Source: Myxococcota bacterium (lineage in GTDB: Bacteria; Myxococcota_A; UBA796; CAJQPC01). From it: 64,000 nucleotides of DNA. Location of the stretch: positions 68,374-132,373 of the forward strand of contig DASCPX010000189.1 of NCBI GenBank assembly GCA_036012755.1. The letters run 5' to 3'. How positions within the stretch are numbered: position 1 is the first letter of the stretch; every line of letters begins with the position of its first letter. A program made the position numbers and the translations under genes. This document shows positions 6,730 to 61,329 of the stretch, piece after piece. The notes beneath the pieces were generated by a model. The model saw nothing but the letters and a program-made list of their open reading frames with translations, was not told the DNA's origin and did not search any database.

Positions 6730-7104
6730 TCAGCGGATGACGGCACGCATTCCGTCGAGCTCGGCGGCGTGGACCTTCAAGGGCTCGACGATCTCTGCGC
6801 CGATCGCCACGATCCTGGCCCGGTCCCGCCCCTCCATCGCGCATCGGAGCAGGCCGAAGCGGAGCTCCAGCTCGACCGACTCCCGGGGTCCGACGAGCTC
6901 CCTCAGCGCCGGCTCCAGCTCCGGCTCGAAGCTGCCCTCGTAGACCATCTGCACCGTCTTGGCGGCCTCGGCGTCGTCTCCGGCGTCCCAGGCCACCAGC
7001 GCCTCGTCGATGCCGGCTTCGACGGTGAGCGCCCGGGCCTCCCACATGCCGGGGTGGTAGGTGGCGTCAGAGGCCATCACGGCGCAGCCGATGAACAGGA
7101 GCAT
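6730..7104 (-). CDS. Hypothetical exported protein/lipoprotein, helical (resembles soluble domains of FTR1-type iron permeases)
   Basis: MLLFIGC start; VYEGSFEPELEPALRE..ELELRFGLLR. Confidence 0.5.
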   Translation of the reverse strand: MLLFIGCAVMASDATYHPGMWEARALTVEAGIDEALVAWDAGDDAEAAKTVQMVYEGSFEPELEPALRELVGPRESVELELRFGLLRCAMEGRDRARIVAIGAEIVEPLKVHAAELDGMRAVIR

Positions 7105-7110
7105 TTGTTG

Positions 7111-7116
7111 AATCTA
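7111..7116 (-). promoter_or_regulatory. Putative -10 box TAGATT 6 nt before ATG 7104 (leaderless)
   Basis: Minus strand TAGATT-CAACAA-ATG, no SD. Confidence 0.55.
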
Positions 7117-7127
7117 CCAGATGAACA

Positions 7128-7820
7128 GTGCTCTTGACGAGTCAACTGATGTTGTTGGCGTGCACCAGGGCCCCGCCGTGTCCTGCGGACATGCTGCTCA
7201 TCGAGGGTGGCACCTTCGAGCTCGGCGAGGTCAGTCCCGGCAAAGGGCACGAGGGTCTCGTCATCACGAGACGCACCATGGTCATCGAGGACTACTGCAT
7301 CGCGACCCATCCCTTCCCCGGCGAGGGCCTCGACTGGCCATCTGACGGGTTGAGCCTGTCCCAGCTCCAGACGTGGGAGCCCCTCGTGAACGAGCGGGGC
7401 CGTCGGGCCTGCACCGTCGAGGAGCTCGTCCGGGCCGCGGCGGGTCCGATGAACCAGCCGCGCTCATCCACGCGCGAGGACTGCGAGTCCAAGGACCACC
7501 AGCCGGGACCAATCGGCAGTCACCCCGCTTGTCGGACCGCAGAGGGCCTCGTCGACTTTGGCGTGCGCAGCTCCTGGGCCCACCTCGCCAGCCTGGATGC
7601 GGAGTTCCCGCGCTACGAGCGCTGGGCCAGCTGGGGTCACACCTGGCGCGACGACACCTTCTACCCCACCACGAACTTCGCGATCCACAGCCACGATCCC
7701 GCCGAAACCAGCTACCTCGACGATGGCTGGCGAAGCTGCGCGAGTCCGCGCCGGGACAAGGGTCGCTGGGCCGAGTTCAGCCAGGCCTTCCCTGGCTCTT
7801 TTGCGGCCTTGCTCGACTAG
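7128..7820 (+). CDS. FGE-sulfatase/SUMF1-like domain lipoprotein
   Basis: CPADMLLIEGGTFELG, GRRACTVEELVRAA, GSHPACRTAEGLVD, GWRSCA. Confidence 0.75.
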   Translation: MLLTSQLMLLACTRAPPCPADMLLIEGGTFELGEVSPGKGHEGLVITRRTMVIEDYCIATHPFPGEGLDWPSDGLSLSQLQTWEPLVNERGRRACTVEELVRAAAGPMNQPRSSTREDCESKDHQPGPIGSHPACRTAEGLVDFGVRSSWAHLASLDAEFPRYERWASWGHTWRDDTFYPTTNFAIHSHDPAETSYLDDGWRSCASPRRDKGRWAEFSQAFPGSFAALLD

Positions 7821-8117
7821 GGCGCTTCAGGATCCGATGGGGGAGTCATGGCACTGTTCCGCCGCCTGCTGTCGTGGTTGTCCGCCCCCTTCCGGGACGA
7901 GCCGGTCCGCCGCAAGCGGATCGCCAGGCGGGCCGACGCCCCCGCTCCAGAAGCCGAGGCTCCAGCGGACCCCACGGCGCCGTGGGAGCGTGGTCGAGCC
8001 GCACCGTGCTTGCAGGCCCGCGCGGTGCGCCGCCACGTCATGGACGTGCTCCACCAGATGGAGGTAGAGAGGCCAGGACCTTCGACGACCGGGCGCTCCT
8101 GAGGCGGCTCCAAGGGG
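7811..8117 (+). repeat. Direct repeat copy 1 (307 bp)
   Basis: Matches 11681..11985 except two substitutions and an extra AG near 8069. Confidence 0.95.
7848..8102 (+). pseudogene. Truncated 5' duplicate of the HDOD gene
   Basis: Same MALFRRLLSWLSAPF N-terminus as 11718; frameshifted and cut off at repeat end. Confidence 0.85.
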
Positions 8118-8277
8118 GGCGCATCCGCCTCCCTCCGATCCGTCGGGGGGCGCGAGGCGACGCGCGGAGTCTGTCCGATGCAACCAGCCCCTAAGTATCG
8201 ACAGGATATAATTTCAACGTATGATACCTCCTGACACCGGAAACCGGAAACCGGCTATACACTCGTGAGGAGGGGAT

Positions 8278-10284: not shown

Positions 10285-10508
10285 GTATCTCGGGCGGTAA
10301 GTAGCGCTGTGCCTGGCCAAAGATAAGACCATCCCTGATGGCCACTCACACTCTGTCACAAAAGCCACGTTCTTCTTCGGCGCCTTCCCACGAGCCACAA
10401 ACACTTCGACTGTAAAACGGCAACATCGGGTCCCCGCACCGGCCAACCAGGATCTACCTCGTGCCCATCCTTCGCCCACTTCACACAAGTCTTGGCAGAA
10501 AACCACCC

Positions 10509-11666: not shown

Positions 11667-11680
11667 TCAAACCCCGAATC

Positions 11681-12793: not shown

Positions 12794-12800
12794 GATGTGA

Positions 12801-14816
12801 GTGTTCCTCCTCGCGCTCGCCTGCTCGAGATCGCCGCCGCCGTCGGTGTTGGTCATCACCCTCGACACGACCCGCGCCGACCGACTCGGGCCATACGGCC
12901 ACGCCCTGGCGAACACCCCGACCTACGACCGCCTCGCCGAGGCCGGCACCGTCTTCCAGCGGGCCTACTCCAGCTGCCCGCTGACCATTCCGAGCCACTC
13001 GACGATCTTCACCGGGCGCTATCCGCCTTCCCACGGCGTGCGCGACAACGGCGACTTCATCCTCGGCGCCGAACAGCTCACCCTCGCCGAGCGCCTGCAG
13101 GAGGCCGGCTACGCGACCGCTGCGTTCACGGCTGCCTTTCCGACACAGGCGCGCTGGGGCTTCGACCAGGGCTTCGAGGTCTACCACGACCCGCTGAAGC
13201 GCCGGCCCACCCAGCTCGACTGGCGGGATCGTCGCGAAGCGCGAGAGGTCATCGACGACGCGCTGGCCACCTTGCCGACCCTGGGGGATCGCCCCCTGTT
13301 CGTCTGGGTCCATCTCTTCGACGCCCACTGGCCCTACGAGCCTCCCGAGCCCTACCTCTCCGAGCACGCCGGGCGCCCCTACGACGGTGAGATCGCATAC
13401 GCCGACGCTCAGGTCGGGCGGCTTCTGACCTGGTGGGACCAGCAGAGGCCCGGCGGGCTGGTGATCCTCACCGCGGATCACGGCGAGGGCTTCGGAGACG
13501 GAGGGGAGCGCACCCACGGCTTCCTGCTGCACGACGGCACGATCCACGTCCCGCTCATCGTGCGCGGCGAGGGCTTCGAGGCCGGCGCTGTCGAGGACGA
13601 CGTCGTCGGTCACGCCGACATCGTGCCCACGGTGTTGTCCTACGTGGGTCTGGAGAAGCACGACGGGCTCCAGGGTTGGGAGCTGGGCCTCGGTGGCTCC
13701 GACGAGGTCTACAGCGAGGCCCTCACCGGCCAGTTCAACCTGGGGCTGGCGCCTCTGTTCGCAGTCTCCGACGAACAAGGCCGGTACACGGAGGGTGCGT
13801 GGGGAGCCTTCTACGAACACCGGGCCTTTGGCGTCTCCACCGTGCCCAGCGAGCACATCGAGGCATCTCCACACCAGGCGGCTCTGGCGGTCTTCCGAGG
13901 CAGGCTCGACGAGGTGGTCGCGCCCACCGCCGCCCTCGACGAGCAGGCCTTCGCGCAGCTCGCGGCGCTCGGCTACCTCGGAGGGGACATCAACGCCGTG
14001 GCTGGAGAGGTCGATCCACGGGACGTCATCGACCTCGTGCCCCTGACCTGGGAGGCTCGCCAGTGGATGGGCAGAGGTCGCCTCGACGAGGCGGAAGCGG
14101 CCATCTCGAGGCTGGAGGAGGGCATGCCCGGAACATACGGTGTCGACCTTCTGCGCGCCCAGCTGCTGCGCTCCCGTGGAGACCTGGGCGAGGCCGCCGA
14201 GCACTTCGCCGCGCTGTACCTGCGCAGCCCCTCCAGCACTGTCTCCCTCCAGCTGGCCGCCCTGCATGCGGCCCGGGGGGACTGGCGGGAGGCCGAGTCC
14301 TGGTACGCCGAGGCGCTGTCTCTGCAGCCGGCGAGCCCCGAGGCGATGGCGGGCCGAGTCCACTGCGCGCAAGCCCTCGGCGAGCCGGAGCGGGCTCGGG
14401 AGCTCGCCAACGAAGCCCTGCGTCTGTACCCCGACCACGCCGAGCTGCGGCTGGTCCTCGCCGAGATCCACCTCGGCGACGGCGACCTCGACGCCGCCGA
14501 GCGCGAGGTGGAGTTGGCCATCCAGTACATGGCCCGCTCCCCTTGGGCTCACGCGACCCTCGCCCAGGTGCGCTGGGAGCAAGGTCGGGCGGACCTGGCC
14601 ATCGAGGCCCTCCAGGAGGCGCTGGCGCTCGACCGGTTCAACGTCCCGGTCAGGGTCCGCCTCGTCGAGTGCCTCCTGGACGTGGGTCGCAACGCAGAGG
14701 CGGTCCGAGCGATCACGCCGCTGGCGCGGCTGATGCCGGAGGAGGACGAGGTCCAAGGCCTCGCACGTCGCGCCCAGGCGGCGCTCGATCTGGAGCGGGG
14801 CCTCACATCTCCTTGA
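12801..14816 (+). CDS. Sulfatase-like hydrolase with C-terminal TPR repeats, lipoprotein
   Basis: ITLDTTRAD, TIPSHSTIFTG, HLFDAHWPY, TADHGE, LAALGY, then TPRs. Confidence 0.9.
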   Translation: MFLLALACSRSPPPSVLVITLDTTRADRLGPYGHALANTPTYDRLAEAGTVFQRAYSSCPLTIPSHSTIFTGRYPPSHGVRDNGDFILGAEQLTLAERLQEAGYATAAFTAAFPTQARWGFDQGFEVYHDPLKRRPTQLDWRDRREAREVIDDALATLPTLGDRPLFVWVHLFDAHWPYEPPEPYLSEHAGRPYDGEIAYADAQVGRLLTWWDQQRPGGLVILTADHGEGFGDGGERTHGFLLHDGTIHVPLIVRGEGFEAGAVEDDVVGHADIVPTVLSYVGLEKHDGLQGWELGLGGSDEVYSEALTGQFNLGLAPLFAVSDEQGRYTEGAWGAFYEHRAFGVSTVPSEHIEASPHQAALAVFRGRLDEVVAPTAALDEQAFAQLAALGYLGGDINAVAGEVDPRDVIDLVPLTWEARQWMGRGRLDEAEAAISRLEEGMPGTYGVDLLRAQLLRSRGDLGEAAEHFAALYLRSPSSTVSLQLAALHAARGDWREAESWYAEALSLQPASPEAMAGRVHCAQALGEPERARELANEALRLYPDHAELRLVLAEIHLGDGDLDAAEREVELAIQYMARSPWAHATLAQVRWEQGRADLAIEALQEALALDRFNVPVRVRLVECLLDVGRNAEAVRAITPLARLMPEEDEVQGLARRAQAALDLERGLTSP

Positions 14817-16176: not shown

Positions 16177-16239
16177 AGAAGTCCAAATTCTCCAGGAATC
16201 TGGATAGAATCGTCTCCGTTGGCACCGACACGAGGGCCC

Positions 16240-20265
<4,026 letters not shown>

Positions 20266-21381: not shown

Positions 21382-22386
21382 ATGTTCGCGCTCCTCGCCT
21401 GTGTTGGTGCCATCGATCTCGACACCGGCGGCGACGGCGTGGTCTCCGGTGAGACTGGCGTGGACCGCTTCAGCGTCGAGATCGACGAGGACGTCCTGTC
21501 CCGGCTGGGGGACCGCCTCGCGGAGGTCCAGAACGACGACGGGAGCTACGACTGGCAGCGAGCCGAGGACGAGGAGCTCATCCCGGAGCTCACGGGCTAC
21601 CAGAACGTCACCGGCGTCAGCGCGTGGGGCTTCTACGCCGCCCAGGAGCGCGTGGGGGAGCGTGAGGACTGGCAGGAGGCCACCGCTCGGGCGGCGGACT
21701 ACTTCGATGGACTGCTCGACGCCGCCATCGCCGATGGCAGCGGACTGTCCTGTCCAAACTACACGGTCCTGGTCTGGGAGCTCGAGTCCAACCCGGATCC
21801 CGTGCTCGAGGCTCGCACCATCGCCGGCTTCGAGGCCATGCTCTCTGCCCACGACGACCGCGCCCGGGGCTTCCTGGAGAACCTCGCCGAGCGGCGCTCC
21901 GCCATCCCCGGGATCATCCCCTGGGACGACGCCCTGTGCGTCGAGGCGGCCCGCGAGATGAGTGAGCTGTCGCCTGTGTTCGCGGAGGACGCCGCGGACG
22001 CCGAGGCCGTACTCGTCGCCGAGCTGGAGGACACCTTCCTGCCCGCTTGGGACGCCGATCCGAGTCTCTTGTGGGGGGACATCTCCATCGGCTGGTCGCT
22101 GCGGGTCCTCGCCGAGAGCCAGGACGCCGAGCTCATCGACGGGCTCACCGAGCGGCTCGTCGTGCTCGTCGACGAGGAGGGTCGGATCACCAACGGGTCC
22201 GACGACGACGGGCCCCAGCAGGCCACCGCATACGGACTCATGGGCCTCAAAGCCGTCGAACACGACCTCTCCCAGAGGGTGCAGGACTTCGCGGAGAGCG
22301 AGGTCGATCCGGACGGCATCGTGCTCGGAGGGGCCGGCGAGACCTACGAAGTCTCCGGCGAACTGCTGCGCGCGCTGGCGGAGTAG
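21382..22386 (+). CDS. Hypothetical lipoprotein, likely alpha-helical barrel
   Basis: GGAGG SD, MFALLAC; LAEVQNDDGSYDW, QATAYGLMGL resemble prenyltransferase/squalene-cyclase repeats. Confidence 0.65.
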   Translation: MFALLACVGAIDLDTGGDGVVSGETGVDRFSVEIDEDVLSRLGDRLAEVQNDDGSYDWQRAEDEELIPELTGYQNVTGVSAWGFYAAQERVGEREDWQEATARAADYFDGLLDAAIADGSGLSCPNYTVLVWELESNPDPVLEARTIAGFEAMLSAHDDRARGFLENLAERRSAIPGIIPWDDALCVEAAREMSELSPVFAEDAADAEAVLVAELEDTFLPAWDADPSLLWGDISIGWSLRVLAESQDAELIDGLTERLVVLVDEEGRITNGSDDDGPQQATAYGLMGLKAVEHDLSQRVQDFAESEVDPDGIVLGGAGETYEVSGELLRALAE

Positions 22387-25407: not shown

Positions 25408-26304
25408 ATGCTCTTGCTCTGCTCGCTCGCTGCTGCTGAAACGGTCGATGGTTGGTCGATGGACGACTTCGGCTCCCCGGGAGACGAGATCGTCGGAAAC
25501 GACGGCTGGGAAGGGGGATATCGCGACGATCCCTGGTGGGTGACGAGCACCGGGTCAGCCGCCTCGGCGACGGACGATTTCGCCGAGACAGAGGACTACG
25601 GGGACGATGCCCCGCAGGACAACTGGATCATCCGTGGTGACGACTTCGAGGATGTCGTGGTCGAGGCCGAGCTCTTCGCCTACGACGATGACGCGGTCGG
25701 CATCGTCAGCAACCACGACGGCGATGACTACTACGCCTGCATCTACGTAGAGGACTCGGCGCCGCCGCCCATCTGGGGTGTGGACGAAGGCACGGTCCTC
25801 ATCATGAAGATCTCCGACGGCGAGGCCGAGCTCCTCGACGCTGGACACGGGGAGCGCGACGACTACGACTTCGAGCTGCGCCTCGAGGTCAACGACGGCG
25901 AGCTCAGCTGCTCCCTGAACGGGCGCGAAGAGGCCAGCGCCAGCGACTCGGATCCCCTCGGCGCGGGGCAGGCGGGGCTCTATGCCTACAACTCGGGCTA
26001 CGGCGAGAGCGGCTACTACAGCGGCTCCACCTGGATCGAGGTGCTCTGGCAGGACGACGACGGCGACGGTGTGGCTGATGATCTCGACAACTGCGAGGAC
26101 ACCGACAACGCCGACCAGGAAGACCTCGACGACGACGGGATCGGTGACGCCTGCGACGACTCGGTCGAGCTCCCCGACACCGGCACGCCTGATGACGACG
26201 GCGGCGGAGATCTCGCGACGGGCGGCTGCGGTTGCGGTGCGATTCCGGTGGCCCCGCTCGCGCTGGGGCTGCTCGGTGTGATCCTGATCCGGAGGCGCCT
26301 GTGA
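25408..26304 (+). CDS. Exported lectin-like/thrombospondin type-3 repeat protein with MYXO-CTERM-like tail
   Basis: DDDAVGIV; DGDGVADDLDNCEDTDNADQEDLDDDGIGDACD; GGCGC..LLGVILIRRRL. Confidence 0.8.
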   Translation: MLLLCSLAAAETVDGWSMDDFGSPGDEIVGNDGWEGGYRDDPWWVTSTGSAASATDDFAETEDYGDDAPQDNWIIRGDDFEDVVVEAELFAYDDDAVGIVSNHDGDDYYACIYVEDSAPPPIWGVDEGTVLIMKISDGEAELLDAGHGERDDYDFELRLEVNDGELSCSLNGREEASASDSDPLGAGQAGLYAYNSGYGESGYYSGSTWIEVLWQDDDGDGVADDLDNCEDTDNADQEDLDDDGIGDACDDSVELPDTGTPDDDGGGDLATGGCGCGAIPVAPLALGLLGVILIRRRL

Positions 26305-30200: not shown

Positions 30201-30984
30201 TCAGCGCTCGCTGGAGAGGTAGATGTATGCCCGTCCAGCGGTCGCCCAGGTCGTGCCGCTGATGTAGTCGTTCGACCACGACGACTCGCCGAAGACGAAG
30301 TCCGTCTCGCCGTCACCGTCGAAGTCCGCCGAGCCGAGCAAGGCGGCGCCGGTGTTGTAGCGGCTCTGGTCGCCCTGCCAGCTCAACAGCGCTGCGTCTT
30401 CGAGATCCGCGACCTCGCCGGAGAAGAGGCAGCCACTGACGAGCGTGATCGTGCCAGGCTCATCCGGGTAGCTGCCTACTCCGTTGTCGTAGTAGAAGTA
30501 GTAGCCGGGCGCAGACACGAGGAAGTCGTCGCAGCCGTCGCCGTCGACGTCGCCCGTCTCCACCAGGTCGTAGCCCAGGTCGGCGCCGTCCTGGTCGCCG
30601 AAGGTCCAGCCATCCGCCAGCGCGGTCGGGTCCAGGCCCGTGCCCAGCAGATCCGCCGCGACCCCGCTGAACATCCAGACCCCGCCGGCGCTCTCGACTC
30701 TGCCGTCCTCGGTGTCGCCCAGAGAGGTCACGACGATGTCCCGGTCGCCGTCGCCGTCGAAGTCCTCGTCGATCCTGCCGTCGCAGTCTTCGTCCACACC
30801 GTCGCAGTCCTCGTCGGCGCCTGGGAAGACGCTCGGATCCTCGTCGTCACAGTCGTTGTCGGTGGTGTAGCCGTCCTGGTCGGCGTCTTCGGGGCCAGAG
30901 GCCTCCGAGTCGTCCAGCGCGGTGGACGTTCGGTAGCGGCCCGGGGTCCTTCAGGCAGGCAACGGTGGCGAGGAGGGCGATCAT
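30201..30984 (-). pseudogene. FG-GAP repeat/MopE-motif lipoprotein, frameshifted near 30943
   Basis: GGAGG then MIALLATVAC at 30984 is one base out of frame with DCDDEDPSVFPGA, GDVDGDGCDDFLVSAP, AGRAYIY. Confidence 0.7.
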
Positions 30985-31014: not shown

Positions 31015-32529
31015 TCAGTCCCGGCGTCGTCGCAGCCCCAGCATTCCGAGGAGCACCAGGATGCCGAGCGCTCCGTCGGCGGTGCCTCGCGTGGACGCGC
31101 AGCCCTTGTCCGGTGGCTCGACGACGAGGGCCTCGGCCAGGTAGCTGCAGGCGTCGCCGCCGTCATCCGACTCGTCGACGACGTTGTCGCAGTCGTTGTC
31201 GATGCCGTCGCAGTCTTCGACCGCGCCCGGGTAGGTCCACGCGTCGTAGTCGTCGCAGTCCCCCTCCGACTCGGTCGCGCCGTCCTGGTCGTCGTCGAAG
31301 GCCCAGGTGCCCTCGTCGATGTGCCCGTCGCAGTCGTTGTCGATCTCGTCCGCCACTTCGTCGGCCTCTGGGCCGATGGTGGCGTCCCTGTCCTCGCAGT
31401 CGCCCTCGCGATTGCTGTAGCCGTCGCCGTCGTCGTCCGCGCGGTTGCCGCCCTCGTCGACCTCGCCGTCGCAGTCGTTGTCGATGAAGTCGTTCGCGAT
31501 CTCGTCCGCGTCGGGGCTCACGGTCGCGTCGTCGTCGAAGCAGTCGCCCTCGTTCTCCGAGTAGCCGTCGCCGTCGTCGTCATTGCTGACGAGATCGGCG
31601 CCCTCGTCGGTCAGGCCGTCGCAGTCGTCGTCGCGTCCGTTGTTCGACTCCTGGGCGTCCGGGTAGACCGTCGCGAGGTTGTCGTCACAGTCGAGGCCGC
31701 AGGCGTAGTAGCCGTCGCCGTCCTTGTCCCAGGACTCGTGCAGCGAGTCCTCGCAGGAGTTGCCGATGACCGTGATGAGCGGCTCCTGGTCCGGGTCGCT
31801 GGTCACCAGGGTGATCTCGGCGCGCTCCTTGGAGTCCTTGCCGGGGATGTACCCGATCTCGATCTCCTCTGTGTCGCCAGGGAGGATGTAGACCGGCGAA
31901 GGGGTCGAGACGTAGTAGCTGGCGCTGGATCCGCTGGAGAAGTCGAAGCCCGCGACCGTCAGGATCACGGAGCCCGTGTTGACGATCGATGCGGTCTCGA
32001 AGAAGGCGCCGCCGACCGCCCGCTGACCGAAGTCGATGAAGGGCGGGTAGTAGGACGAGCTCGGGTAGCGTGCGAGACCTCGCACCTGGAAGACGTGGAC
32101 GCCCCCGCCGTCGTGGAGTCCGTCGATCGGGTCGATCGGGACCACCCGGTTGTCGTTGGTGTCGACGTAGACGGTGGCGCGGAAGTAGCCCTCCGTCTCG
32201 GGTCGGAAGTTGATCTCGATCTCTTCGAAGATCGTGCCGTCGGAGGCGCCGGTCTCGAACTCGAGGTAGTCGTCGGAGCCGTCGTCGTCGAGGTCGGCGT
32301 TGGCCCAGCTCGGCAGCAGGACGAAGGCTTCCTCGTCTTGTTGGTTGAGGATCCCGATGTTGTCGACGGTCAGTCGGCCCCGTCCCACCGAGTACAGCGG
32401 CACGCGAACGGTGAGGCGTTCACCGACCGTGACACCGCCTGCGTCGGCGAGGGGCTGGACGTAGAGCTCACGGGACTGCTCGTAGACGCCGTAGTCGGGC
32501 TGGCAGGCGAGGAGGGAGACGAGCATCAT
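31015..32529 (-). CDS. Surface lipoprotein with Ig/ASH-like domains, MopE-type repeats and MYXO-CTERM-like tail
   Basis: MMLVSLLAC; IDFG..NTGS..L; several DCD..ATV.PDA.E..NDCDG units; GCAS..LVLLGMLGLRRRRD. Confidence 0.85.
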   Translation of the reverse strand: MMLVSLLACQPDYGVYEQSRELYVQPLADAGGVTVGERLTVRVPLYSVGRGRLTVDNIGILNQQDEEAFVLLPSWANADLDDDGSDDYLEFETGASDGTIFEEIEINFRPETEGYFRATVYVDTNDNRVVPIDPIDGLHDGGGVHVFQVRGLARYPSSSYYPPFIDFGQRAVGGAFFETASIVNTGSVILTVAGFDFSSGSSASYYVSTPSPVYILPGDTEEIEIGYIPGKDSKERAEITLVTSDPDQEPLITVIGNSCEDSLHESWDKDGDGYYACGLDCDDNLATVYPDAQESNNGRDDDCDGLTDEGADLVSNDDDGDGYSENEGDCFDDDATVSPDADEIANDFIDNDCDGEVDEGGNRADDDGDGYSNREGDCEDRDATIGPEADEVADEIDNDCDGHIDEGTWAFDDDQDGATESEGDCDDYDAWTYPGAVEDCDGIDNDCDNVVDESDDGGDACSYLAEALVVEPPDKGCASTRGTADGALGILVLLGMLGLRRRRD

Positions 32530-36522: not shown

Positions 36523-37230
36523 ATGGTGTTGCTCCTGTTCGCCTGCAAGGCCGACCCGAGCGGGGTCTGGCTGTTCCACCTCGCCGAGACCCCCGACGCA
36601 GAGGACTGCGCCACCACCGTCAGCCACGACTTCGTCGGTGCCGGCCTCCCGGGAGAGGACATCGACGAGAGCGAGTGGCAGATCAGCGAGACCGCGACGT
36701 GGTCGGAGAGCTCGCTGTTCGGGCTCGTGAGCGCTCTGTCCGAGGGCTACACGCTCCTGCTCGACGGGCGCATCTACACCTCCGCCGATGGCGCCACCTT
36801 CACCCACTCGCGCGCCAGCGAGGACGACGAGAGCTGGATCCACCCCAGCGGCTACCAGTGGTCCTCGAGCGCCTCCGCGAGCCTCGAGATGACCGTCACG
36901 GCAAACCTCGAGGAGGGCTGGTCGGGCACCTGGTCCAGCGTCGACTCCACCATCGAGGACTACGAGGAGAGCGACGGCTGGAGCGAGGAGATCGGGATCG
37001 GGACCACCGGCCAGATCCCCTCCGATGACCACCTCGTCGAAGAGGACGACACGGGGACCGAGGTGCCCGTGTCCAACCTCTTCGAGGAGATCGACTGCGC
37101 GGACGACCCCTGCCAGCTGTCGATCTCGACCGACTGCAGCATCGACTGGTCGCTCTCTGCCGAGCTCACATCGCTCACGGCAGAGGACTTCGAGGCGGTC
37201 GCTGGCTACGAGACCGACGCAGGCTATTAG
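36523..37230 (+). CDS. Hypothetical acidic lipoprotein
   Basis: MVLLLFAC start; codon bias matches the host. Confidence 0.75.
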   Translation: MVLLLFACKADPSGVWLFHLAETPDAEDCATTVSHDFVGAGLPGEDIDESEWQISETATWSESSLFGLVSALSEGYTLLLDGRIYTSADGATFTHSRASEDDESWIHPSGYQWSSSASASLEMTVTANLEEGWSGTWSSVDSTIEDYEESDGWSEEIGIGTTGQIPSDDHLVEEDDTGTEVPVSNLFEEIDCADDPCQLSISTDCSIDWSLSAELTSLTAEDFEAVAGYETDAGY

Positions 37231-37247: not shown

Positions 37248-38600
37248 ATGCTGCTCGGCCTGATCTCCGTCGCCAACTCCTCTGCCTACTACGTGTCCGA
37301 TGTCGGCACCCGCTCGATGGCCCGCGGAGGCGCCTTCATCGCCGGTGCAGACGACACCACGGCGGTCTACTACAACCCCGCAGCCCTGACCCGCATCGAC
37401 GGCGGGCAGTTCAAGCTCGACTTCGCGGGGGTCCAGCAGTGGATTACCTTCGACCGGGCTGATGTCGGCGACGAGGTCTTCGAGCCCATCGAGAACTGCC
37501 TCTGTCCCTACCCCGTCCCCACCATCGGTCTCGCCCAGGGCTTCGCCGGCGGCCGCGGGGCCTTGGCCTTCAGCGTGTACCCGCCCTATGCGCCGCTCAT
37601 CGAGTACCCGGCGGACGGACCCCAGCGCTACGATCTCGTCGACTCCACCGTCATCGAGATCACCGCCGGCCCGAGCGCCGGCTTCGAGGTCATCCCCGGC
37701 CTCAGCATCGGCGCCGGTCTCCAGTACAAGTGGATGCTGGCCGGTCAGGAGCTTGCCATCACCACTCTCGAGGGGGACGACCCGTCCAACGACATCCTCT
37801 TCGAGATGGAGGCGCGGGATCCCTTCACCCTCTCCTGGAACGCAGGGGTGTTGTGGGAGGACCCCAAGGACCAGCGCTACGCCATCGGCGCTGCCTTCGT
37901 GCCGCCGGTCACCTACGAAGCCCGCGGCTACCTGGCCGCCGACTTCAGCCAGCACGCCTTCTACGAGTCCGGCCAGATCGTCAGCGAGTCGGCCAGGGAC
38001 GACGACATGCTGCTGACCGTCAAGATGCCCATGCAGATCAAGGCGGGGGTGCTCGTGCGTCCGACCGACGCCCTGGAGATCGAGGCAGCAGGGGTCTACC
38101 AGAAGTGGGACGTGGTCGACGAGGTCGTCATCACCGACGTGGACATGGAGATCGACGTCGACATCTTCGGAACCGCCGACACCGTCGAGATCACCGACGA
38201 CGTCGTGCTCCCGGCCGGCTACCGGAACTCCTGGTCGGCGCGCCTGGGTGCCGAGTGGGACGCCGGCGATCGCCTGAGCCTGCGCGCCGGGGGCATCTTC
38301 GAGACCTCGGCCATCCCGCCCGCGACCCAGGGGGTCAACCTCGTCGACGGCAACAAGGTCGGCTACGGCCTGGGCACCACGGTGCACCTCAACCGGCGCT
38401 GGGCGGTCGACGCCGCCTGGACCCAGAACTTCCTGCTCCTGGACGAGATCACCGACAGCGAGGTCCGCCAGATCGTGGTGGATCCGATCTCCGGCGACAT
38501 CAGCGACGGCCGTGTCATCGGCAACGGCACGATGGAGAGCCGCATCGACATCGCCTCGTTGGCGGTGCAGTGTCTCTGGGGCAAGGGCGTGAGGGAGTAG
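37248..38600 (+). CDS. FadL/OmpP1-family outer membrane transporter
   Basis: RSMARGGAFIAGADDTTAVYYNPAAL, YRNSWSARLGAEW, LRAGG. Confidence 0.9.
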   Translation: MLLGLISVANSSAYYVSDVGTRSMARGGAFIAGADDTTAVYYNPAALTRIDGGQFKLDFAGVQQWITFDRADVGDEVFEPIENCLCPYPVPTIGLAQGFAGGRGALAFSVYPPYAPLIEYPADGPQRYDLVDSTVIEITAGPSAGFEVIPGLSIGAGLQYKWMLAGQELAITTLEGDDPSNDILFEMEARDPFTLSWNAGVLWEDPKDQRYAIGAAFVPPVTYEARGYLAADFSQHAFYESGQIVSESARDDDMLLTVKMPMQIKAGVLVRPTDALEIEAAGVYQKWDVVDEVVITDVDMEIDVDIFGTADTVEITDDVVLPAGYRNSWSARLGAEWDAGDRLSLRAGGIFETSAIPPATQGVNLVDGNKVGYGLGTTVHLNRRWAVDAAWTQNFLLLDEITDSEVRQIVVDPISGDISDGRVIGNGTMESRIDIASLAVQCLWGKGVRE

Positions 38601-42953: not shown

Positions 42954-43571
42954 TCACCAGCTCCCGGCGCAGTCCTTGGATTGCCAGGTGTAGGTCGCGG
43001 GCGGCACGGGGTCGTCCTCGTCGTCCGGCCAGAACTCACCCCGCGCGAAGTCGTAGTCACCTCGCCACCCCTCCTCGTCACCCCAGGAGCTCTCCCGGTA
43101 CCGGTAGACCAGCATCGCGTTCTCCCAGTTCAGCGTCCCGCTGGGGGTGAGGGTGTCGAAGGTCAACAGCATGTCCTCGTCGTCGCTGCCCCAGCTACCA
43201 CTCTGGATGTCCACCCCGGTCCGGAGCACGGCGTAGCCCTCTTCGTGCTCGGTGTTCTCGATGGCCAGCATCTCGGCCGTCGTCATGCGGGTGCCGACGT
43301 AGGAGTAGGTGTCGATGACGTCGTCTTCCCAGTCTCCGCCGTAGAAGTAGAAGATGCGCTCGGTGAGATCGAGGTTGCCGTCGGCGTCGCTCCGGCCCTC
43401 GGCCAGCCGGTAGTAGCGGGTCTCCCCGTCCTCGCAGGCCGTGACGTCCCAGTACTCGTAGCCCTCGGGCACGTTGGGGTGGATGCCTGGGTCGGAGTCC
43501 TCGACCTGAGCGGAGCCCGAGTCGTCTCCGCCGCCCTGGAACTTGCCGCACGAGAGTAGGAACAGGATCAT
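42954..43571 (-). CDS. Hypothetical acidic lipoprotein
   Basis: GGAGG then MILFLLSC at 43571. Confidence 0.75.
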   Translation of the reverse strand: MILFLLSCGKFQGGGDDSGSAQVEDSDPGIHPNVPEGYEYWDVTACEDGETRYYRLAEGRSDADGNLDLTERIFYFYGGDWEDDVIDTYSYVGTRMTTAEMLAIENTEHEEGYAVLRTGVDIQSGSWGSDDEDMLLTFDTLTPSGTLNWENAMLVYRYRESSWGDEEGWRGDYDFARGEFWPDDEDDPVPPATYTWQSKDCAGSW

Positions 43572-46060: not shown

Positions 46061-48295
46061 ATGGCCCTCGTCGCCTTGGCGGTCGCGCTGACCTGCCCCC
46101 TCGCTCATGGGCAGGAGAACCTCGACTTCGAGGAGGGAGTGCCCGGCGGTGCGCCGATTGGATGGATGGTCCCCGAGGCGGTCCACGCTGCCGGCTACGA
46201 GGCGACGCTCACAGACGCTTCGCCAGCGTCCGGAGTGATGGCGGCCGAGCTCCGATACGTCGGCGAGGGAGACCCCGAGGGCTTCGGCAACCTGATGCAG
46301 ACCGTCGACGCGGCGCCCTGGCGGGGACATCGCGTGGGGATCAGCGCCAAGATCAGGGTCAAGGGTGGACGCGGGCAGCTCTGGATGCGCGTCGATCTGC
46401 CCGACGGCGAGATGGGTTTCTTCGACAACTCCAATGACCGCCCCGTGACCAGCGACGACTGGACCGAGCTGAAGATCGTCGGTGTCGTCGACGAAGACGC
46501 AGAGGACATCAACTTCGGGCTCCTCTACATCGGAGACGGGCGCGCCTGGATCGACGGCCTCCAGATCGAGGACCTCGGGCTGGTAGGGGAGACAGAGACC
46601 GCCGCGGTCTCTGCCCGCGGGATGGAGAACCTGGTGGCGCTCGCGCGGCTGGCGGGGATCGTGGAGTGTTTCCACCCCACCGATCAGGCGCGGGCGACCG
46701 ATTGGACTCGCCTTGTCGCCGACGCGGCGCTCACCTCGGAGGCTGCCCTTGACGCCGAGGCGCTGGCGGCGGCGCTCCAGGCGGCCTTTGCCCCGATCGC
46801 CCCGACGGTCCAGGTCTGGGCGGGCCCCCCCGAAGAGGCACCCCCGGCGGAGCTTCCCGACGCTCGGCGTGCCATGTGGGTCGAGCACCTCGGGATCGGG
46901 AGCAGCTGGCAGGGAGTGGGCCTCCCGTCCAACATCTACGAGTCCGAGGTCCGCAACGGGCGAACGGTCCAAGCCGAGGATCGCCTCGCGGCGACGACGG
47001 TCGCCCTGGGCGGCGGGGTCTCGGCGCGGATCCCCCTCGTCCTCCCCGCTGATCGCTCGGGCTCCTTGCCGCGGCTCGAGGCTCCACCGCCCCTCGTCGA
47101 GCGGCCCGACTGGTGGGTACCCGAGGTCTCGGATCGCTCCGTTCGCCTTGCCGCGACGATGCGGACCTGGAACGTCTTCCAGCACTTCTACCCCTACTGG
47201 GACGTGGTCGATGCCGACTGGCCAGCGGCGCTCCGAGAGGGCCTCGCTGGTGCCGCGGAGGCCCCCGACGCCGAGACATTCCACTGGGTCCTGTCGCAGA
47301 TGGTCGCTCGGGCCCGCGACGGTCACGGCGCTGTCCACACGGGCGGTGCCAGCCACCAGCTCCCGGTAGAGCTGGCCTGGGTGGAGGGGGAGGTCGTCGT
47401 GCTTCGGACCCTGTCCGAGGCCAGCGCGTTGGCGCCCGGTGATGTCCTCTTGGAGATCGACGGTGCTCCGATCGACGCGGCTCTTGCAGAGGCCCTCTCC
47501 GGGATCTCTGCGGCCGGCGACGGCTGGCTCTACTTCCGCGCGATGAACGAGCTCGCTGAGCGTGACAGCTCCGCGCCCGTCGAGCTCCGCGTGCGTCGGT
47601 TCGGCGAGGGCGAAGAGCTGGTGGTCCAAGCCACCCCCCTCACCGTGAAGGCGGCGGCGGAGGTGCTGGAGACCGAGCTCGGCCCGGTCGACGGAGCCGA
47701 GGTCGGGGACGGGATCTACTACTTCGATCTCGACGGCGCCGACATGGAGGAGCTCGAGCCGTTCTTGAAGACCCTCGCCGATGCTCGAGGCGTGATCTTC
47801 GATCTCCGTGGCTACCCGGGATCAGCAGGATCGCAGCTCCTCGGCTACCTCTCCGACGATTGGCTGCGGAGCGCGATCTGGAAGTCGCCGATCTACACGC
47901 TCCCCGATCAGGAGGCTGTCACCTGGGATCTGTCCGGGCGCTGGAGGCTGAGACCCCGGCGTCCTCGCTTGACCGAGAACGTGGTCTTCATCACCGACGG
48001 TCGGGCGATCTCCTACGCGGAGAGCTGCCTGGGCATCATCGAGCACTACGAGCTCGGAGAGATCGTGGGCGCGCCGTCAGCGGGGACCAACGGCAACATC
48101 AACCTCTTTCAGCCCCTGCCGGGGGTCAACGTGGTCTGGACCGGTATGCGCGTGGTGAAGCACGACGGCTCCGAGCACCACGGAGTCGGCGTCCTCCCCA
48201 CGGTCCCCGTCGAGCCGACCCTGGCGGGGGTTGCCCAGGGACGCGACGAGCTCCTGGAGCGGGCGCTGGAGGTCGCGGAGGCCGCCGCGGAGTAG
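46061..48295 (+). CDS. S41-family peptidase, exported
   Basis: AGGAGG SD, signal peptide; WNVFQHFYPY, PDZ-like LAPGDVLLEIDG, FDLRGYP, ISYAES, SAGTNG, GVGVLP. Confidence 0.9.
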   Translation: MALVALAVALTCPLAHGQENLDFEEGVPGGAPIGWMVPEAVHAAGYEATLTDASPASGVMAAELRYVGEGDPEGFGNLMQTVDAAPWRGHRVGISAKIRVKGGRGQLWMRVDLPDGEMGFFDNSNDRPVTSDDWTELKIVGVVDEDAEDINFGLLYIGDGRAWIDGLQIEDLGLVGETETAAVSARGMENLVALARLAGIVECFHPTDQARATDWTRLVADAALTSEAALDAEALAAALQAAFAPIAPTVQVWAGPPEEAPPAELPDARRAMWVEHLGIGSSWQGVGLPSNIYESEVRNGRTVQAEDRLAATTVALGGGVSARIPLVLPADRSGSLPRLEAPPPLVERPDWWVPEVSDRSVRLAATMRTWNVFQHFYPYWDVVDADWPAALREGLAGAAEAPDAETFHWVLSQMVARARDGHGAVHTGGASHQLPVELAWVEGEVVVLRTLSEASALAPGDVLLEIDGAPIDAALAEALSGISAAGDGWLYFRAMNELAERDSSAPVELRVRRFGEGEELVVQATPLTVKAAAEVLETELGPVDGAEVGDGIYYFDLDGADMEELEPFLKTLADARGVIFDLRGYPGSAGSQLLGYLSDDWLRSAIWKSPIYTLPDQEAVTWDLSGRWRLRPRRPRLTENVVFITDGRAISYAESCLGIIEHYELGEIVGAPSAGTNGNINLFQPLPGVNVVWTGMRVVKHDGSEHHGVGVLPTVPVEPTLAGVAQGRDELLERALEVAEAAAE

Positions 48296-49288: not shown

Positions 49289-49609
49289 CTACTCTTCGGC
49301 CGGCTTGAAGGTCTCGAGGTAGGCGATGAGGTTGGCGATGTCAGCGTCGGACAGCTGCGGGAAGGGCGCCATCGGCGTGCCGGGCTTGCCGGTCTTGATG
49401 ACCTTCTTCAGCTCCCCCTTGTTGGTCCCGTCCCAGAAGGCCTTGGCGGTGAAGTCAGAGGGCTTCGGGTCGAGCGCCATCGCAGCGGGTCCGTTGCCGT
49501 CGGCCTTGGCTCCGTGACATGCCATGCAGTTGGCCGTGTAGGTGGCCTTGCCCTTGTCGGCGTCGGCGGCCTCGGCGGTGCCGAGTGCGAGGAGGACGGG
49601 GAGGATCAT
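49289..49609 (-). CDS. Monoheme cytochrome c
   Basis: Signal peptide, CMACH, PGTPMAPF. Confidence 0.92.
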   Translation of the reverse strand: MILPVLLALGTAEAADADKGKATYTANCMACHGAKADGNGPAAMALDPKPSDFTAKAFWDGTNKGELKKVIKTGKPGTPMAPFPQLSDADIANLIAYLETFKPAEE

Positions 49610-49682: not shown

Positions 49683-50081
49683 TCAGATTCCGCCCTCTGG
49701 CTCCTCTGGCTTCTGGTCGTCGTCGTCCTTCTTTTTCGGGTCTGGCTTCTCTCCGCCGGTGCTCGGCTGGTCCCGGCCGTCTTCGAGGCGTTCCATGTAG
49801 ACGAGCACGCGACGGGCGTCGTGCTTGTCGAACTCGGCGCGGAAGGCGGGCATGTCGCCCTGGCCGTCGAGGATCAGCTCGATGAGCGGGTCCTTGTCGG
49901 TGTAGTCCAGCTCGCCGCGCAGGTCGGGTACGCCTCCGGTCAGCGCCGCCGCGGCGGGACCGTCCCCTGCCATGGAGTCGCCGTGGCACTGCCAGCAGGA
50001 TCGATCGTAGACCTGTCGACCCTTCACGTGGTCGGCAGGCCGTTTCCCCGGTTGGGCGGCGATGAGCAACAGCAGCAGCAT
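49683..50081 (-). CDS. Monoheme cytochrome c with charged tail
   Basis: CWQCH, GQGDMPAF. Confidence 0.9.
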   Translation of the reverse strand: MLLLLLIAAQPGKRPADHVKGRQVYDRSCWQCHGDSMAGDGPAAAALTGGVPDLRGELDYTDKDPLIELILDGQGDMPAFRAEFDKHDARRVLVYMERLEDGRDQPSTGGEKPDPKKKDDDDQKPEEPEGGI

Positions 50082-55705: not shown

Positions 55706-55731
55706 GTATCGGCTGAAGCCGGAGTTCTGTT

Positions 55732-57210: not shown

Positions 57211-57237
57211 TCTTTCCTCGAGGCCGCGTTTGAGATG

Positions 57238-57319: not shown

Positions 57320-57354
57320 GAAAGGAGGTGTTGGGGACCGGGCCTTCTAACCAG

Positions 57355-58380: not shown

Positions 58381-58403
58381 AGGCGGCTCCAGGGAGTCTG
58401 GGA

Positions 58404-60338
58404 CTATAGACCGTGGAGCCCCACGAGGTGGTCCTCGCGATCGGTCAGCCACTGGCGCAGGTAGTCCTTTTCTTCCTCGTAGGAGGTCCAGTCGCTCCGG
58501 TAGGCGCCCCACCAGTGGCTCTTGTGGGCGCTCTCCCACTTAATCCAGTCCCTCTCTGCGCTGGGATCGACCAGCTCCCAGTAGGACTCGACCGTGGACA
58601 GCTGCGCCTCGAGGCTCAGTGGACCTTCGCGCAGCTGGACCCAGCGCTCGAGGAGATCGTCGGGGCGTGACTGTTGGATTGCCCAGAACACCCGGTTGGT
58701 CGAGGTGTAGGCGTTTTCATTCTGGGCGCTGACCCGGGCCGTGTACCAGTTCTGGCCCCAGCTGTGGTTGAAGTCCCAGGGGACGTAGCGGAAGGTCCAG
58801 TCGGCGGGGTCGTTGTAGAGGTAGCTGTTCTTTCCGGCGCTGTCCTCGGAGACCGAGACGTAGACGAGCAGGAACCAGTCCATGAACTCCTCGACGTCGA
58901 TCCAGCCCTCGGCCTCCGCCATCATCGTGTCGGCGTCGGAGTCTCCGGTGAAGGCGACGAGCTGGCGCAGGTCGTCGAACGCGCTGGGGCCCTCCTTCTG
59001 CTCGTAGCCGGCTGCGAGATCGGACTTGTTGCCCCCGTAGGCGCTCACGCGGCTGAAGTTCGCGTCGTGGCTGATGGCCTTGTAGAGGTTGCCGTCCCGG
59101 TCGAGCCCGGCGTGGTCCACGAACTCGTCGTCGACCTTGTCGAGGCCCACGTAGAGGCCGTGGTACTCGCCCTCGAGGTAGACCACGGCGAAGAAGGTGC
59201 GCGGCGTGAGGCGATGCACGCCCTGGTGTTCGGCCATCGCCAACCAGGTGTCGTAGATGAACTTCTGGCGGACATAGGCGTTGTCGTCGAAGGTCGACAG
59301 CAGCACGAGGTGGTTCCGGCTCTTCTCCCAGCCCTCGAGCTGGAACTCCTCGTCGGGGAACTCGAGGGTGTAGCTGGGCTTCGCGAAGCTGGCGCTGGTG
59401 GCGCCGCGGATCTTGACCTGGTGCTCCCAGAGGGCGCCCATGTAGGTGAGCGTCGCGTCCTGGTAGCTCTGCGTGATGGCGGTGCCGACGTCGAGGTGGA
59501 AGACCGGCAGGCCCCACTCCTCCGTGTACGTGAGCGGGTCGACACCGACGCCGAGGTCGGGGTCGTCTGCAACCCAGATGCGGAAGGCCGTGCCCTCGGG
59601 GATGCGTTCGCTGCTCACGTTGGCGCTGAAGACGAGGTCGTAGACCCCGCCGTCCGCCGCGCCCGTGGTCCAGCTCAGCGTGCCGTCGTAGTCGGCCTCG
59701 TCAGGTGCCGCGACGAGCTCGATGGCGGCTGTGGTCTCGCTGCAGATGGGCGTCAACGAAACAGTGTCGCCCTCCAGCAGGTTCGCCTCGTACTCCGCCT
59801 CGAGCCAACACTCACCGCTGACCCCTGTCGGCTCGGGGAGATCGACCTCGGGGTTCGGCTCTCCAGGGGTCGCCTCCGTCGAGAGGTACCAGCCTGCTGC
59901 TGACCGCACCGCCGCGACGTCGGTCACCTGGCGAGGCCACTCCAGCTCTTCGACGAGGCTCCCGTCGGGGTTGATCAGAGCAAGCGAGCCGCCCTCGACC
60001 GCCAGCTCCAGGGCGAGGTGGTCTGGTCCGAGGCTGGGGTCGCCGTCGGCCCAGAGGACCAGGTGGTCGCCGGCCGCGACGACGAGGTCTTCGAGGACGT
60101 GGAGCTCGTCGCCGCTGTGGACGGACCAGTCATCGAGGAGGACCGGGTCGTCCCCCGGGTTGTGGAGCTCCACCCAGTCGGAGGCCTTGTCTCCTGCGTG
60201 GGTCCAGCTCTCGGAGCTGGCCATGAGCTCGGTGATGACGAGGTCGCCGTAGTCACCCGAGATCTCCTCGACGCCCTCCGAGTCGGACACTGGCGTCGGG
60301 GCCGGGTCCGCGGTGCAACTGAGGGCAAGCCAGATCAC
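58404..60338 (-). CDS. CotH-family kinase lipoprotein with lamin-tail domain
   Basis: VITELMA..DWVELHN; KIRGATS..KPSY, GNLYK, KNSYLY, PWDFNHSWG. Confidence 0.9.
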   Translation of the reverse strand: MIWLALSCTADPAPTPVSDSEGVEEISGDYGDLVITELMASSESWTHAGDKASDWVELHNPGDDPVLLDDWSVHSGDELHVLEDLVVAAGDHLVLWADGDPSLGPDHLALELAVEGGSLALINPDGSLVEELEWPRQVTDVAAVRSAAGWYLSTEATPGEPNPEVDLPEPTGVSGECWLEAEYEANLLEGDTVSLTPICSETTAAIELVAAPDEADYDGTLSWTTGAADGGVYDLVFSANVSSERIPEGTAFRIWVADDPDLGVGVDPLTYTEEWGLPVFHLDVGTAITQSYQDATLTYMGALWEHQVKIRGATSASFAKPSYTLEFPDEEFQLEGWEKSRNHLVLLSTFDDNAYVRQKFIYDTWLAMAEHQGVHRLTPRTFFAVVYLEGEYHGLYVGLDKVDDEFVDHAGLDRDGNLYKAISHDANFSRVSAYGGNKSDLAAGYEQKEGPSAFDDLRQLVAFTGDSDADTMMAEAEGWIDVEEFMDWFLLVYVSVSEDSAGKNSYLYNDPADWTFRYVPWDFNHSWGQNWYTARVSAQNENAYTSTNRVFWAIQQSRPDDLLERWVQLREGPLSLEAQLSTVESYWELVDPSAERDWIKWESAHKSHWWGAYRSDWTSYEEEKDYLRQWLTDREDHLVGLHGL

Positions 60339-60344
60339 GGTTGG

Positions 60345-60354
60345 ATGATAGCGT
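60345..60354. promoter_or_regulatory. Overlapping divergent -10 boxes (TATCAT minus, TAGCGT plus), each 6 nt from a GTG
   Basis: 22-nt gap ggttggatgatagcgtcgcgag between the two starts. Confidence 0.6.
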
Positions 60355-60360
60355 CGCGAG

Positions 60361-61329
60361 GTGCTGTTCATCCTCCTGGCCTGTGACCCCGTCGCGGTCC
60401 CGGACGTGCAGCACGAGTCGGCCCTGCCGGAGAGCACCTCTCCCGACGACAGCGTGGCACCCGGACCTGTCGTCTACGTCAACGAGCTCTCCTCCGGAGA
60501 CGACTGGGTCGAGCTCTACAGCGAGGAGGCGTCTGTCTCGCTGGAGGGTCTCACGCTCAGCGACGACTACCTCGAGCCGGACCGGCAGACGCTCTCGGGC
60601 ACCCTGGAGGGCTACCTCGTCGTCGATCTGGTCGTGTTCAGGCTGGCCTCGGAGGGCGAGGCGGTCGGCATCTTCGACGGCTCGGAGCCCCTGGACTGGG
60701 TCGTGTTCCCGGCGCTGCAGGCGGACGAGGTCTACGCTCGGCTGCCCGACGGGGGAGAAGACTGGACGACGATGGTCCGCGGCACCCCCGGCGAGTCGAA
60801 CCGATTGGTTGAGATCGAGGAGATCGCTGCGGTGCCCGCGGGGTCCGAGTGGTCCTACCTGGATGGCGGCGAGGACCCCGAGGAGGGCTGGGATCTGCCT
60901 GGTTTCGACGCAGAGAGCTGGAGCTCCGGGCCGGCTCCCCTCGGCTACGGGGACTCCCAGACCACGGTCGTGAGCTATGGCGACGACGCCAACGACAAGC
61001 ACCCGACCACCTGGTTCCGTCACTCCTTCGAGCACACGGGCTCGGCGATCTCGGCCCAGCTGGGGCTCGTCTGTGACGACGGCTGCCTCGTGCGGCTCAA
61101 CGGTGAGGAGGTCCTTCGGTGGGGTCTCCCGGATGGCGATCTGAGCTCGGACACCTACGCCGACGTCACCGCCAGTGGGTCCGCCGAGACCGAGTGGCAC
61201 ACGCGAACCGTCGACCCGACCCTGTTGCTCGAGGGAGAGAACGTGCTCTCTGGAGAGGTCCACCAGGTCCAGGCGAGCAGCTCGGACATCACCTTCGACG
61301 CGTCCTTGGACCTGGTCGTGGAGCGCTGA
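60361..61329 (+). CDS. Lamin-tail domain lipoprotein with C-terminal jelly-roll domain
   Basis: VYVNEL..DWVELY, ARLPDG; WSYLD, APLGYGD, TTWFRHSF, DDGCLVRLNG, GENVL..EVHQ. Confidence 0.85.
   Translation: MLFILLACDPVAVPDVQHESALPESTSPDDSVAPGPVVYVNELSSGDDWVELYSEEASVSLEGLTLSDDYLEPDRQTLSGTLEGYLVVDLVVFRLASEGEAVGIFDGSEPLDWVVFPALQADEVYARLPDGGEDWTTMVRGTPGESNRLVEIEEIAAVPAGSEWSYLDGGEDPEEGWDLPGFDAESWSSGPAPLGYGDSQTTVVSYGDDANDKHPTTWFRHSFEHTGSAISAQLGLVCDDGCLVRLNGEEVLRWGLPDGDLSSDTYADVTASGSAETEWHTRTVDPTLLLEGENVLSGEVHQVQASSSDITFDASLDLVVER

Follow-up and report, generated by a model that had tools for sequence, protein, structure and literature searches.

We analyzed a 64,000-nucleotide stretch of DNA (positions 68374 to 132373 of contig DASCPX010000189.1, here C189; the whole stretch is called the window) that carries a series of genes whose products appear to begin with extremely short, uncharged export leaders. 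The Myxococcota assembly that contains it, here G000, comprises 6.73 Mb in 250 contigs, with 68% G+C and 96% completeness. Genes were called with a home-made codon-usage model trained on long open reading frames (ORFs) of G000; 5931 genes were called, 5331 of them were scored, and the coding density under the standard code was 93%. Pfam scans covered the window proteins. The window genes with leaders of this kind are listed below, with window coordinates, a slash at the predicted cleavage site, and promoter positions counted from the start codon; "MYXO-CTERM-like" refers to a C-terminal sorting tag that is treated further on.

6730..7104, minus strand: 124-amino-acid (aa) lipoprotein-type gene, leader MLLFIG/C; TAG 3 codons upstream, TAGATT at -12 to -7.
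7128..7820, plus strand: 230-aa gene with GTG start, MLLTSQLMLLA/C; stop 1 codon upstream, Cys at residue 12 without a preceding Lys or Arg.
12801..14816, plus strand: Sulfatase and TPR protein, leader (GTG)FLLALA/C; TGA adjoins the GTG, Pfam Sulfatase at 1.1e-41.
21382..22386, plus strand: 334-aa gene, leader MFALLA/C; GGAGG 5 nucleotides (nt) ahead of the ATG.
25408..26304, plus strand: 298-aa gene, leader MLLLCSLAAA/E, MYXO-CTERM-like C-terminus.
30201..30984, minus strand: leader MIALLATVA/C with an FG-GAP/MopE cargo out of frame; Pfam FG-GAP and Cu-binding_MopE on 30201-30950, GGAGG before the ATG.
31015..32529, minus strand: 504-aa protein with MopE repeats and an immunoglobulin (Ig)-like part, leader MMLVSLLA/C, MYXO-CTERM-like C-terminus; stop 6 codons (no more than 21 nt) upstream.
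36523..37230, plus strand: 235-aa gene, leader MVLLLFA/C; TAG 3 codons upstream, TAGGCT at -12 to -7.
37248..38600, plus strand: FadL-type outer-membrane protein, non-lipobox leader MLLGLISVANS/SAYY; Pfam Toluene_X at 6e-35, match from residue 8.
42954..43571, minus strand: 205-aa gene, leader MILFLLS/C; GGAGG 6 nt ahead of the ATG.
46061..48295, plus strand: Peptidase S41 protein (Pfam), N-terminus MALVALAVALTCPLAHG/QE, without Lys or Arg.
49289..49609, minus strand: cytochrome c, leader MILPVLLALGTAEA/A; Pfam Cytochrom_C at 1.5e-15.
49683..50081, minus strand: cytochrome c, N-terminus MLLLLLIAAQPGK; stop 4 codons upstream, Pfam Cytochrome_CBB3 at 3e-12.
58404..60338, minus strand: CotH and lamin-tail-domain (LTD) protein, leader (GTG)IWLALS/C; TATCAT at -12 to -7, Pfam CotH at 2.6e-48.
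60361..61329, plus strand: 322-aa gene, leader (GTG)LFILLA/C; TGA and TAG 3 to 5 codons upstream, TAGCGT at -12 to -7.

A preliminary description of the window had listed nine lipobox-type N-termini, all of which translated as it gave them, at the same coordinates and on the same strands; the GTG starts at 12801 (+), 60338 (-), and 60361 (+) are read as Met. Five had been said to be closed off by nearby in-frame stops, and the stops at 7104 (-), 12801 (+), 32529 (-), 36523 (+), and 60361 (+) are indeed present, with no ATG, GTG, or TTG intervening. The leader at 60338 (-) is not stop-bounded. Both 21382 (+) and 43571 (-) have an in-frame TTG upstream, yet GGAGG lies 5 to 6 nt ahead of the ATG in each, as it does at 30984 (-). 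At this last locus the leader was found as described, but its frame stops after 45 codons and the FG-GAP/MopE cargo lies in frame +1, a frameshift that marks either a pseudogene or an assembly indel. Of four non-lipobox examples, those at 25408 (+), 37248 (+), and 50081 (-) were real gene starts, while MFLLVCAAFA (6119, minus strand, GTG start) turned out to be a 45-codon ORF that was not called. Pfam supported the claim that several cargos come from exported families (Sulfatase with TPR, FadL/Toluene_X, two cytochromes c, CotH with LTD, MopE repeats, and Peptidase_S41). No Pfam match was found for the proteins encoded at 7104 (-) and 7128 (+). The matches of the 7104 (-) and 36523 (+) proteins in G002, a genome of the same genus, retain a short uncharged leader with a terminal Cys. 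A 1348-aa protein at 16219-20265 (+), with 15 bacterial TSP3 repeats and a MYXO-CTERM-like tail, has a canonical Arg-bearing leader (ending in ALA), so both leader types coexist in the window.

We then counted such N-termini over the whole genome. Each protein was taken from the first ATG, GTG, or TTG behind the upstream stop (longest-ORF metric), and the short lipobox pattern was defined as Met, 2 to 9 hydrophobic or small residues, a lipobox-like triplet, and Cys. This pattern occurred at 369 of 5331 first starts and at 133 of 74912 internal in-frame starts, a ~39-fold difference that far exceeds chance. Among the 1680 genes that have only one possible start, the lipobox Cys fell at residue 6 to 12 in 217 and at residue 13 or later in 49, with a mode of 8. 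The leader was 6 to 10 residues long in 359 of the 367 short-leader genes. The median start lay 1 codon away from where coding potential sets in. The upstream stop lay within 10 codons of the Cys in 84 of the 367 genes and within 12 codons in 115, so that a canonical leader is impossible in the latter. A Shine-Dalgarno motif was present at 163 of the 367 short starts, and a TAnnnT hexamer began at -12 in 63 of them and at -13 in another 17. On the sequence evidence, the short-leader starts are genuine gene starts. The proposal that the lineage encodes uncharged, lipobox-ended leaders of 6 to 10 residues on exported-type proteins, many of which cannot be longer, was upheld by the 115 stop-bounded cases. 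A more permissive metric, which accepted any start near the onset of coding (720 genes in G000), was discarded because it also scored 5 to 8 per 65 to 79 genes in distant controls, where Met, Leu, or Val codons inside ordinary hydrophobic (h-) regions match.

The TAnnnT hexamers at -12 to -7 of 7104 (-), 36523 (+), 60338 (-), and 60361 (+) have the geometry expected of leaderless transcripts. That short leaders are frequently coupled to leaderless mRNAs was nevertheless an overstatement: among single-start genes, TAnnnT at -13 to -11 accompanied ~19% of short-lipobox genes versus ~10% of the others, and a Shine-Dalgarno motif accompanied 50% versus 42%. Leaderless architecture seems to be common to the genome as a whole, with a modest (about twofold) enrichment among short-leader genes rather than a tight coupling to them. 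The short-leader genes at 60338 (-) and 60361 (+) diverge from a 22-nt spacer in which their own TAnnnT boxes overlap by 2 bases on opposite strands; the upstream part of each promoter must thus lie inside the other gene.

The 367 leaders have the consensus M-L-L-L-L-L-A-C. Their lipobox has Leu at -3 in 66% and at -2 in 62%, and Ala, Gly, or Ser at -1 in 70, 16, and 14%, a composition that is only partly independent evidence because the search pattern demanded a lipobox-like ending. The Cys is followed by Thr, Ala, Ser, or Gly, and Pro, Asp, and Glu abound at +3 to +6, much as in lipoprotein tethers. Short leaders in G000 were more hydrophobic than long ones (mean Kyte-Doolittle value of 2.96 versus 2.14; Leu content of 53% versus 31%), and Lys or Arg occurred in 2 of 217 short leaders versus 43 of 48 long ones. 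The net charge over +2 to +11 was -1.34 behind short and -1.10 behind long leaders, so acidity is common to both and is not specific to the short form. Residue 2 is nearly always specified by an NTN codon (T as the middle base in 80%). Given the specificity of methionine aminopeptidase, the initiator Met should then be retained.

Rule-based definitions of a lipoprotein signal (PROSITE PS51257-style, DOLOP) place the Cys at about residue 15 to 35, with Lys or Arg among the first seven residues and an h-region of at least seven. Like the canonical Sec/signal peptidase II (SPase II) signals of the E. coli Lpp type, the short leaders end in a lipobox, L-[A/S/L]-[A/G/S]-C, here as [LVI][ASTVI][GAS]C with an invariant Cys; Lgt and LspA are encoded, orthology connects the two forms, and a polar tether rich in Pro, Asp, and Glu follows. 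They differ in having no basic N-terminal (n-) region, in placing the Cys at 7 to 11 rather than at ~15 to 35 (residue 6 to 12 in 217 of the 266 lipobox-bearing single-start genes), and in keeping an h-region of only ~3 to 6 residues before the lipobox. In PMC9360617, the standard lipoprotein signal has an n region of positive charge and an h region.

Signals of the signal peptidase I (SPase I) type show the same reduction. Among the single-start proteins, 93 of 1680 consist at their N-terminus of Met and 6 to 8 hydrophobic residues, mostly followed by an A-x-A-like box and then by acidic residues, and 87 have Lys or Arg followed by an h-region. As in canonical Sec/SPase I signals, there is a hydrophobic core, a small-x-small box, and a polar mature start (for example, MLLLLSLGLA/AEPE and MILLFATLALA/DDE, from N-termini read by eye). 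Unlike those signals, the short ones total 10 to 15 residues and begin their h-region, uncharged and without a basic n-region, at Met1. TonB-dependent receptors of G000 have leaders of both kinds, MKNSFSRCLLGLSLLWSSTALA and MLWLSMTLALA.

The short leaders bear no twin arginine of the twin-arginine translocation (Tat) type, with a mean of 0.01 Lys or Arg per short leader; a genuine RR-type lipoprotein leader was seen elsewhere in G000, where C193 encodes a small protein with an OmpA domain. The leaders of type IV prepilins (class III) are likewise very short, at 5 to 10 residues. They are, however, charged and cleaved after Gly ahead of a ~20-residue hydrophobic segment, whereas here the leader itself is hydrophobic and what follows is polar, acidic, and Pro-rich. 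Membership in the prepilin class was rejected on account of the polar, Pro-rich, acidic residues behind the Cys.

Orthologues relate the short leaders to conventional ones. In orthologues of the 32529 (-) protein, the Cys and the QPDYGV motif behind it are constant and the leader varies: it is MMLVSLLAC (window) or MLLLPLLAC within the genus, MLLLLALAC (stop-bounded, with GGAGG) and MLKLLLLTAC in g4, MTRWTLAIGFLGILTAC in g2, and 14 to 22 residues with Lys or Arg in six other families, with the Cys aligned throughout. This Cys-aligned series indicates that the short form is a truncated SPase II signal. The mature start of FadL, [AS][AGT][YF][YF], is conserved in 24 orthologous loci; the leaders before it are uncharged and 11 to 15 residues long within the family, several of them stop-bounded, and 17 to 26 residues long with Lys or Arg in most other families, G030 being an exception. 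These alignments identify the short leaders as homologues of the canonical SPase II and SPase I signals of relatives. The term "non-canonical export code," used in the preliminary description, therefore goes beyond the data: the orthologues show truncated canonical signals, and ~40 canonical Lys/Arg-bearing lipoprotein leaders coexist with the short ones in G000.

First-start rates of the lipobox pattern in relatives were 12/125 in G002 (same genus), 4/70 in G008 and 6/50 in G014 (both g7), 4/97 in G012 (g4), 2/194 in G003 (g2), and 1/90 in G004 (g3). Genomes of other families gave 3/175 (G021), 1/180 (G028), 0/60 (G020), 0/43 (G026), and 2/63 (G030), and the pattern was absent from the genes sampled in three distant Myxococcota (0/79 in G039, 0/65 in G038, and 0/72 in G036; 0/216 in all). 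A broader measure, any h-region beginning at Met1 of the longest ORF, gave 603/5331 in G000 (339 lipobox, 264 other), 16/125 in G002, 9/63 in g6, 8/50 and 5/70 in g7, 4/97 and 6/94 in g4, 5/194 in g2, 2/90 in g3, 1/60 in g5, and 2/44 in g8; other families had 1 to 6 per 43 to 180 genes, and the distant genomes had 0/79, 1/65, and 0/72. As a trend in small samples, the trait peaks in several genera that belong to a single uncultured Myxococcota family and is detectable less often across the order.

A selection of exported proteins that does not depend on the N-terminus was available in the MYXO-CTERM tag, which is described in PMC11980579 as an invariant Cys, a transmembrane helix, and a cytoplasmic Arg-rich tail and which marks proteins sorted to the cell surface. 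A regular expression for the Cys motif, transmembrane segment, and Arg tail selected 82 G000 genes; it replaced a looser filter (133 genes) that had admitted ordinary C-terminal transmembrane proteins. Our classifier assigned 53 of the 82 an n-less short leader only, 7 a Lys/Arg-bearing leader only, 4 both readings, and 18 neither; reading the N-termini by eye gave ~61, 7, 3, and 11, respectively. The 32529 (-) protein scored 19.5 bits against TIGR03901, for which the cut-off is 20, and we therefore use the wording "MYXO-CTERM-like." Several such tails in G000 help to assign it to an uncultured Myxococcota lineage. In sampled relatives, n-less leaders on proteins with such a tag also occurred in other families of the order, so that the disappearance of the n-region reaches beyond the ultrashort lipobox form.

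Two further observations concern these tagged proteins. A short lipobox leader and a MYXO-CTERM-like tag occur on one protein at 31015-32529 (-) and in G000 on C1 (two genes) and C5, which would give each of these proteins two predicted lipid-anchoring cysteines. MYXO-CTERM-like proteins encoded on C14 (two genes) and C43 of G000, at L057 (G008), and at L064 (G028) share the mature N-terminus FCG[ST]Y[VI]G directly behind the predicted cleavage site and look like a conserved family.

We interpret the short leaders, with a probability of roughly 0.75, as minimal Leu-rich Sec-type signals that sit on genuine starts and have probably lost the basic n-region along with much the greater part of the h-region. 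The predicted cargos, among them FadL, two cytochromes c, CotH, and MYXO-CTERM-like surface proteins, must cross the membrane. A lipoprotein signal would consist of fMet and 5 to 9 Leu-rich residues with a lipobox at the end, and the signal of another exported protein would consist of fMet, 6 to 9 hydrophobic residues, and a small-x-small cleavage box, 10 to 15 residues in total. Greater hydrophobicity would make up for the lost length and charge; the free N-terminal amine and the net-acidic early mature region would create the asymmetry of charge by which the hairpin takes its orientation in SecYEG; and the ordinary Lgt, LspA, signal peptidase I (LepB), and Lol machinery that G000 encodes could then lipidate and cleave as usual. 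On balance, we also lean toward the wider proposition that in a family-level Myxococcota lineage the basic n-region is dispensable and that Sec signals close to a physical minimum (~7 to 9 residues in lipoproteins, ~10 to 13 in the rest) are the default for most exported proteins.

Several points weigh against this interpretation. Export, lipidation, and cleavage of the short-leader proteins are predicted. A leader of 6 to 9 residues is too short for a bilayer-spanning helix, which makes the access of Lgt and LspA to a Cys at the outer leaflet hard to explain. In the tag test, 18 of the 82 genes had no recognizable leader, and the lenient classifier also called 1401 of 5174 other genes "n-less only," so that only the comparison of n-less with Lys/Arg leaders is informative there. 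A BamD/YfiO homologue of G000 (C149:39926-40537, minus strand) starts with MFALLLTLSLPAVAAKNQ, in which no lipobox Cys was found; it may not be a lipoprotein, and not every expected lipoprotein fits the short-leader pattern. All counts come from the home-made gene caller and regular expressions rather than from a validated predictor. The caller was trained on G000 and found fewer genes in lower-GC controls (for example, 2 genes in 60 kb of G029), and the samples from relatives (43 to 194 genes each) are small and phylogenetically non-independent, so that they give a trend and not a test.

Functional leaders of this kind might instead, as the preliminary description proposed, need lineage-specific machinery or a different route, such as a dedicated Lgt or LspA paralogue, a changed SecY lateral gate or Ffh M-domain, or obligate cotranslational export by the signal recognition particle (SRP) or YidC. 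G000 encodes two LspA (PF01252) and five Lgt (PF01790) proteins, all above the curated cut-off, together with two LolA and single ordinary matches to SecA, SecY, and Ffh. The genes form a tandem lspA-lspA-lgt-lgt array on C59 (100000-102591), with three more lgt paralogues elsewhere in the genome. This array and the additional paralogues are what such an explanation could draw on, together with the unusual Leu richness of the leaders, since high signal hydrophobicity favors SRP, and with the difficulty of fitting leaders so short to textbook Sec and Lgt geometry. Copy number, however, was rejected as an explanation because it does not follow the trait: two LspA matches occurred in g1, g2, g3, g4, and g6, of which g2 and g3 show the trait weakly, and one in trait-bearing g7, while Lgt matches ranged from 2 to 5 across the 31 genomes searched. 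The standard route is also still in use, as the Lys/Arg-bearing long leaders and the TonB-receptor leader beginning MKNSFSRC indicate. With copy numbers that do not track the trait and canonical leaders that coexist with short ones, nothing here calls for a separate pathway, and we consider this explanation unlikely.

It is far less probable that the N-termini are decayed remnants or uncleaved hydrophobic tags on proteins that never leave the cytoplasm or the membrane's inner face. Such a view gains from the fact that we infer export from sequence and that, to our knowledge, the h-region is shorter than any known to function. It is hard to reconcile with a pattern that is kept in hundreds of genes and across genera, with the lipobox or A-x-A box well preserved, and with an outer-membrane barrel, c-type cytochromes, and MYXO-CTERM-like surface proteins that cannot work in the cytoplasm.

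An artefact of start-site choice, in which non-canonical starts, read-through, or assembly errors hide longer N-termini with normal n-regions, is the least probable account: 252 of the 367 genes are not tightly stop-bounded (stop-to-Cys distance above 12 codons), some "long" leaders contain an internal short form that makes the choice of start ambiguous in places, and 30984 (-) is frameshifted in an assembly of 250 contigs, but the stop-bounded cases largely refute it, and initiation signals spaced to fit the short start (Shine-Dalgarno motifs and -10 boxes), stop-to-start residues that are not signal-like, and the same short, stop-bounded leaders in independent assemblies of other genera all stand against it. 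Stop-codon reassignment or read-through was rejected given the coding density under the standard code, the lack of signal-like residues between stop and start, and the pair of neighboring stops ahead of 60361 (+), one TGA and the other TAG.

The tripartite layout of signal peptides, in which the n-region is basic and the h-region has seven or more residues, is treated as near universal. Signal peptides of E. coli that were engineered to have a neutral n-region or a shortened, Leu-enriched core have reportedly been studied in the Inouye and Kendall laboratories, and there, too, less charge or length is apparently tolerated when the core is more hydrophobic. Those were laboratory mutants of single proteins, whereas in this lineage hundreds of genes would naturally use minimal Sec-type signals by default, with leaders that are even shorter. 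In the text returned by a full-text literature search, no account was found of ultrashort signals that naturally lack an n-region throughout a lineage. Sec signals of both the SPase I and the SPase II type that have no n-region and a minimal h-region, as the lineage-wide natural form, are what we rate as a new variant.

If hundreds of uncharged leaders of 7 to 13 residues work, they offer a ready-made test set for the minimal needs of SecYEG, SRP, Lgt, and LspA. If near-minimal signals are the default, the lower limits now accepted for targeting to Sec, recognition by Lgt, and cleavage by LspA would not hold universally, and orientation could be set by the N-terminal amine and the acidic mature region, possibly aided by lineage-specific changes in SecY, SRP, or membrane lipids. 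Rule-based predictors would reject the short-leader proteins, and the number of envelope proteins and lipoproteins in these widespread uncultured myxobacteria is probably underestimated; gene callers may also extend short-leader starts upstream where the frame remains open. Biotechnology may have a use for very short, portable tags that direct secretion or lipidation.

A 668-aa ORF at 8278-10284 of the window gave no Pfam or NCBIfam match. The G+C content at 8001-12000 is 0.61, compared with ~0.68 to 0.70 in the flanks.

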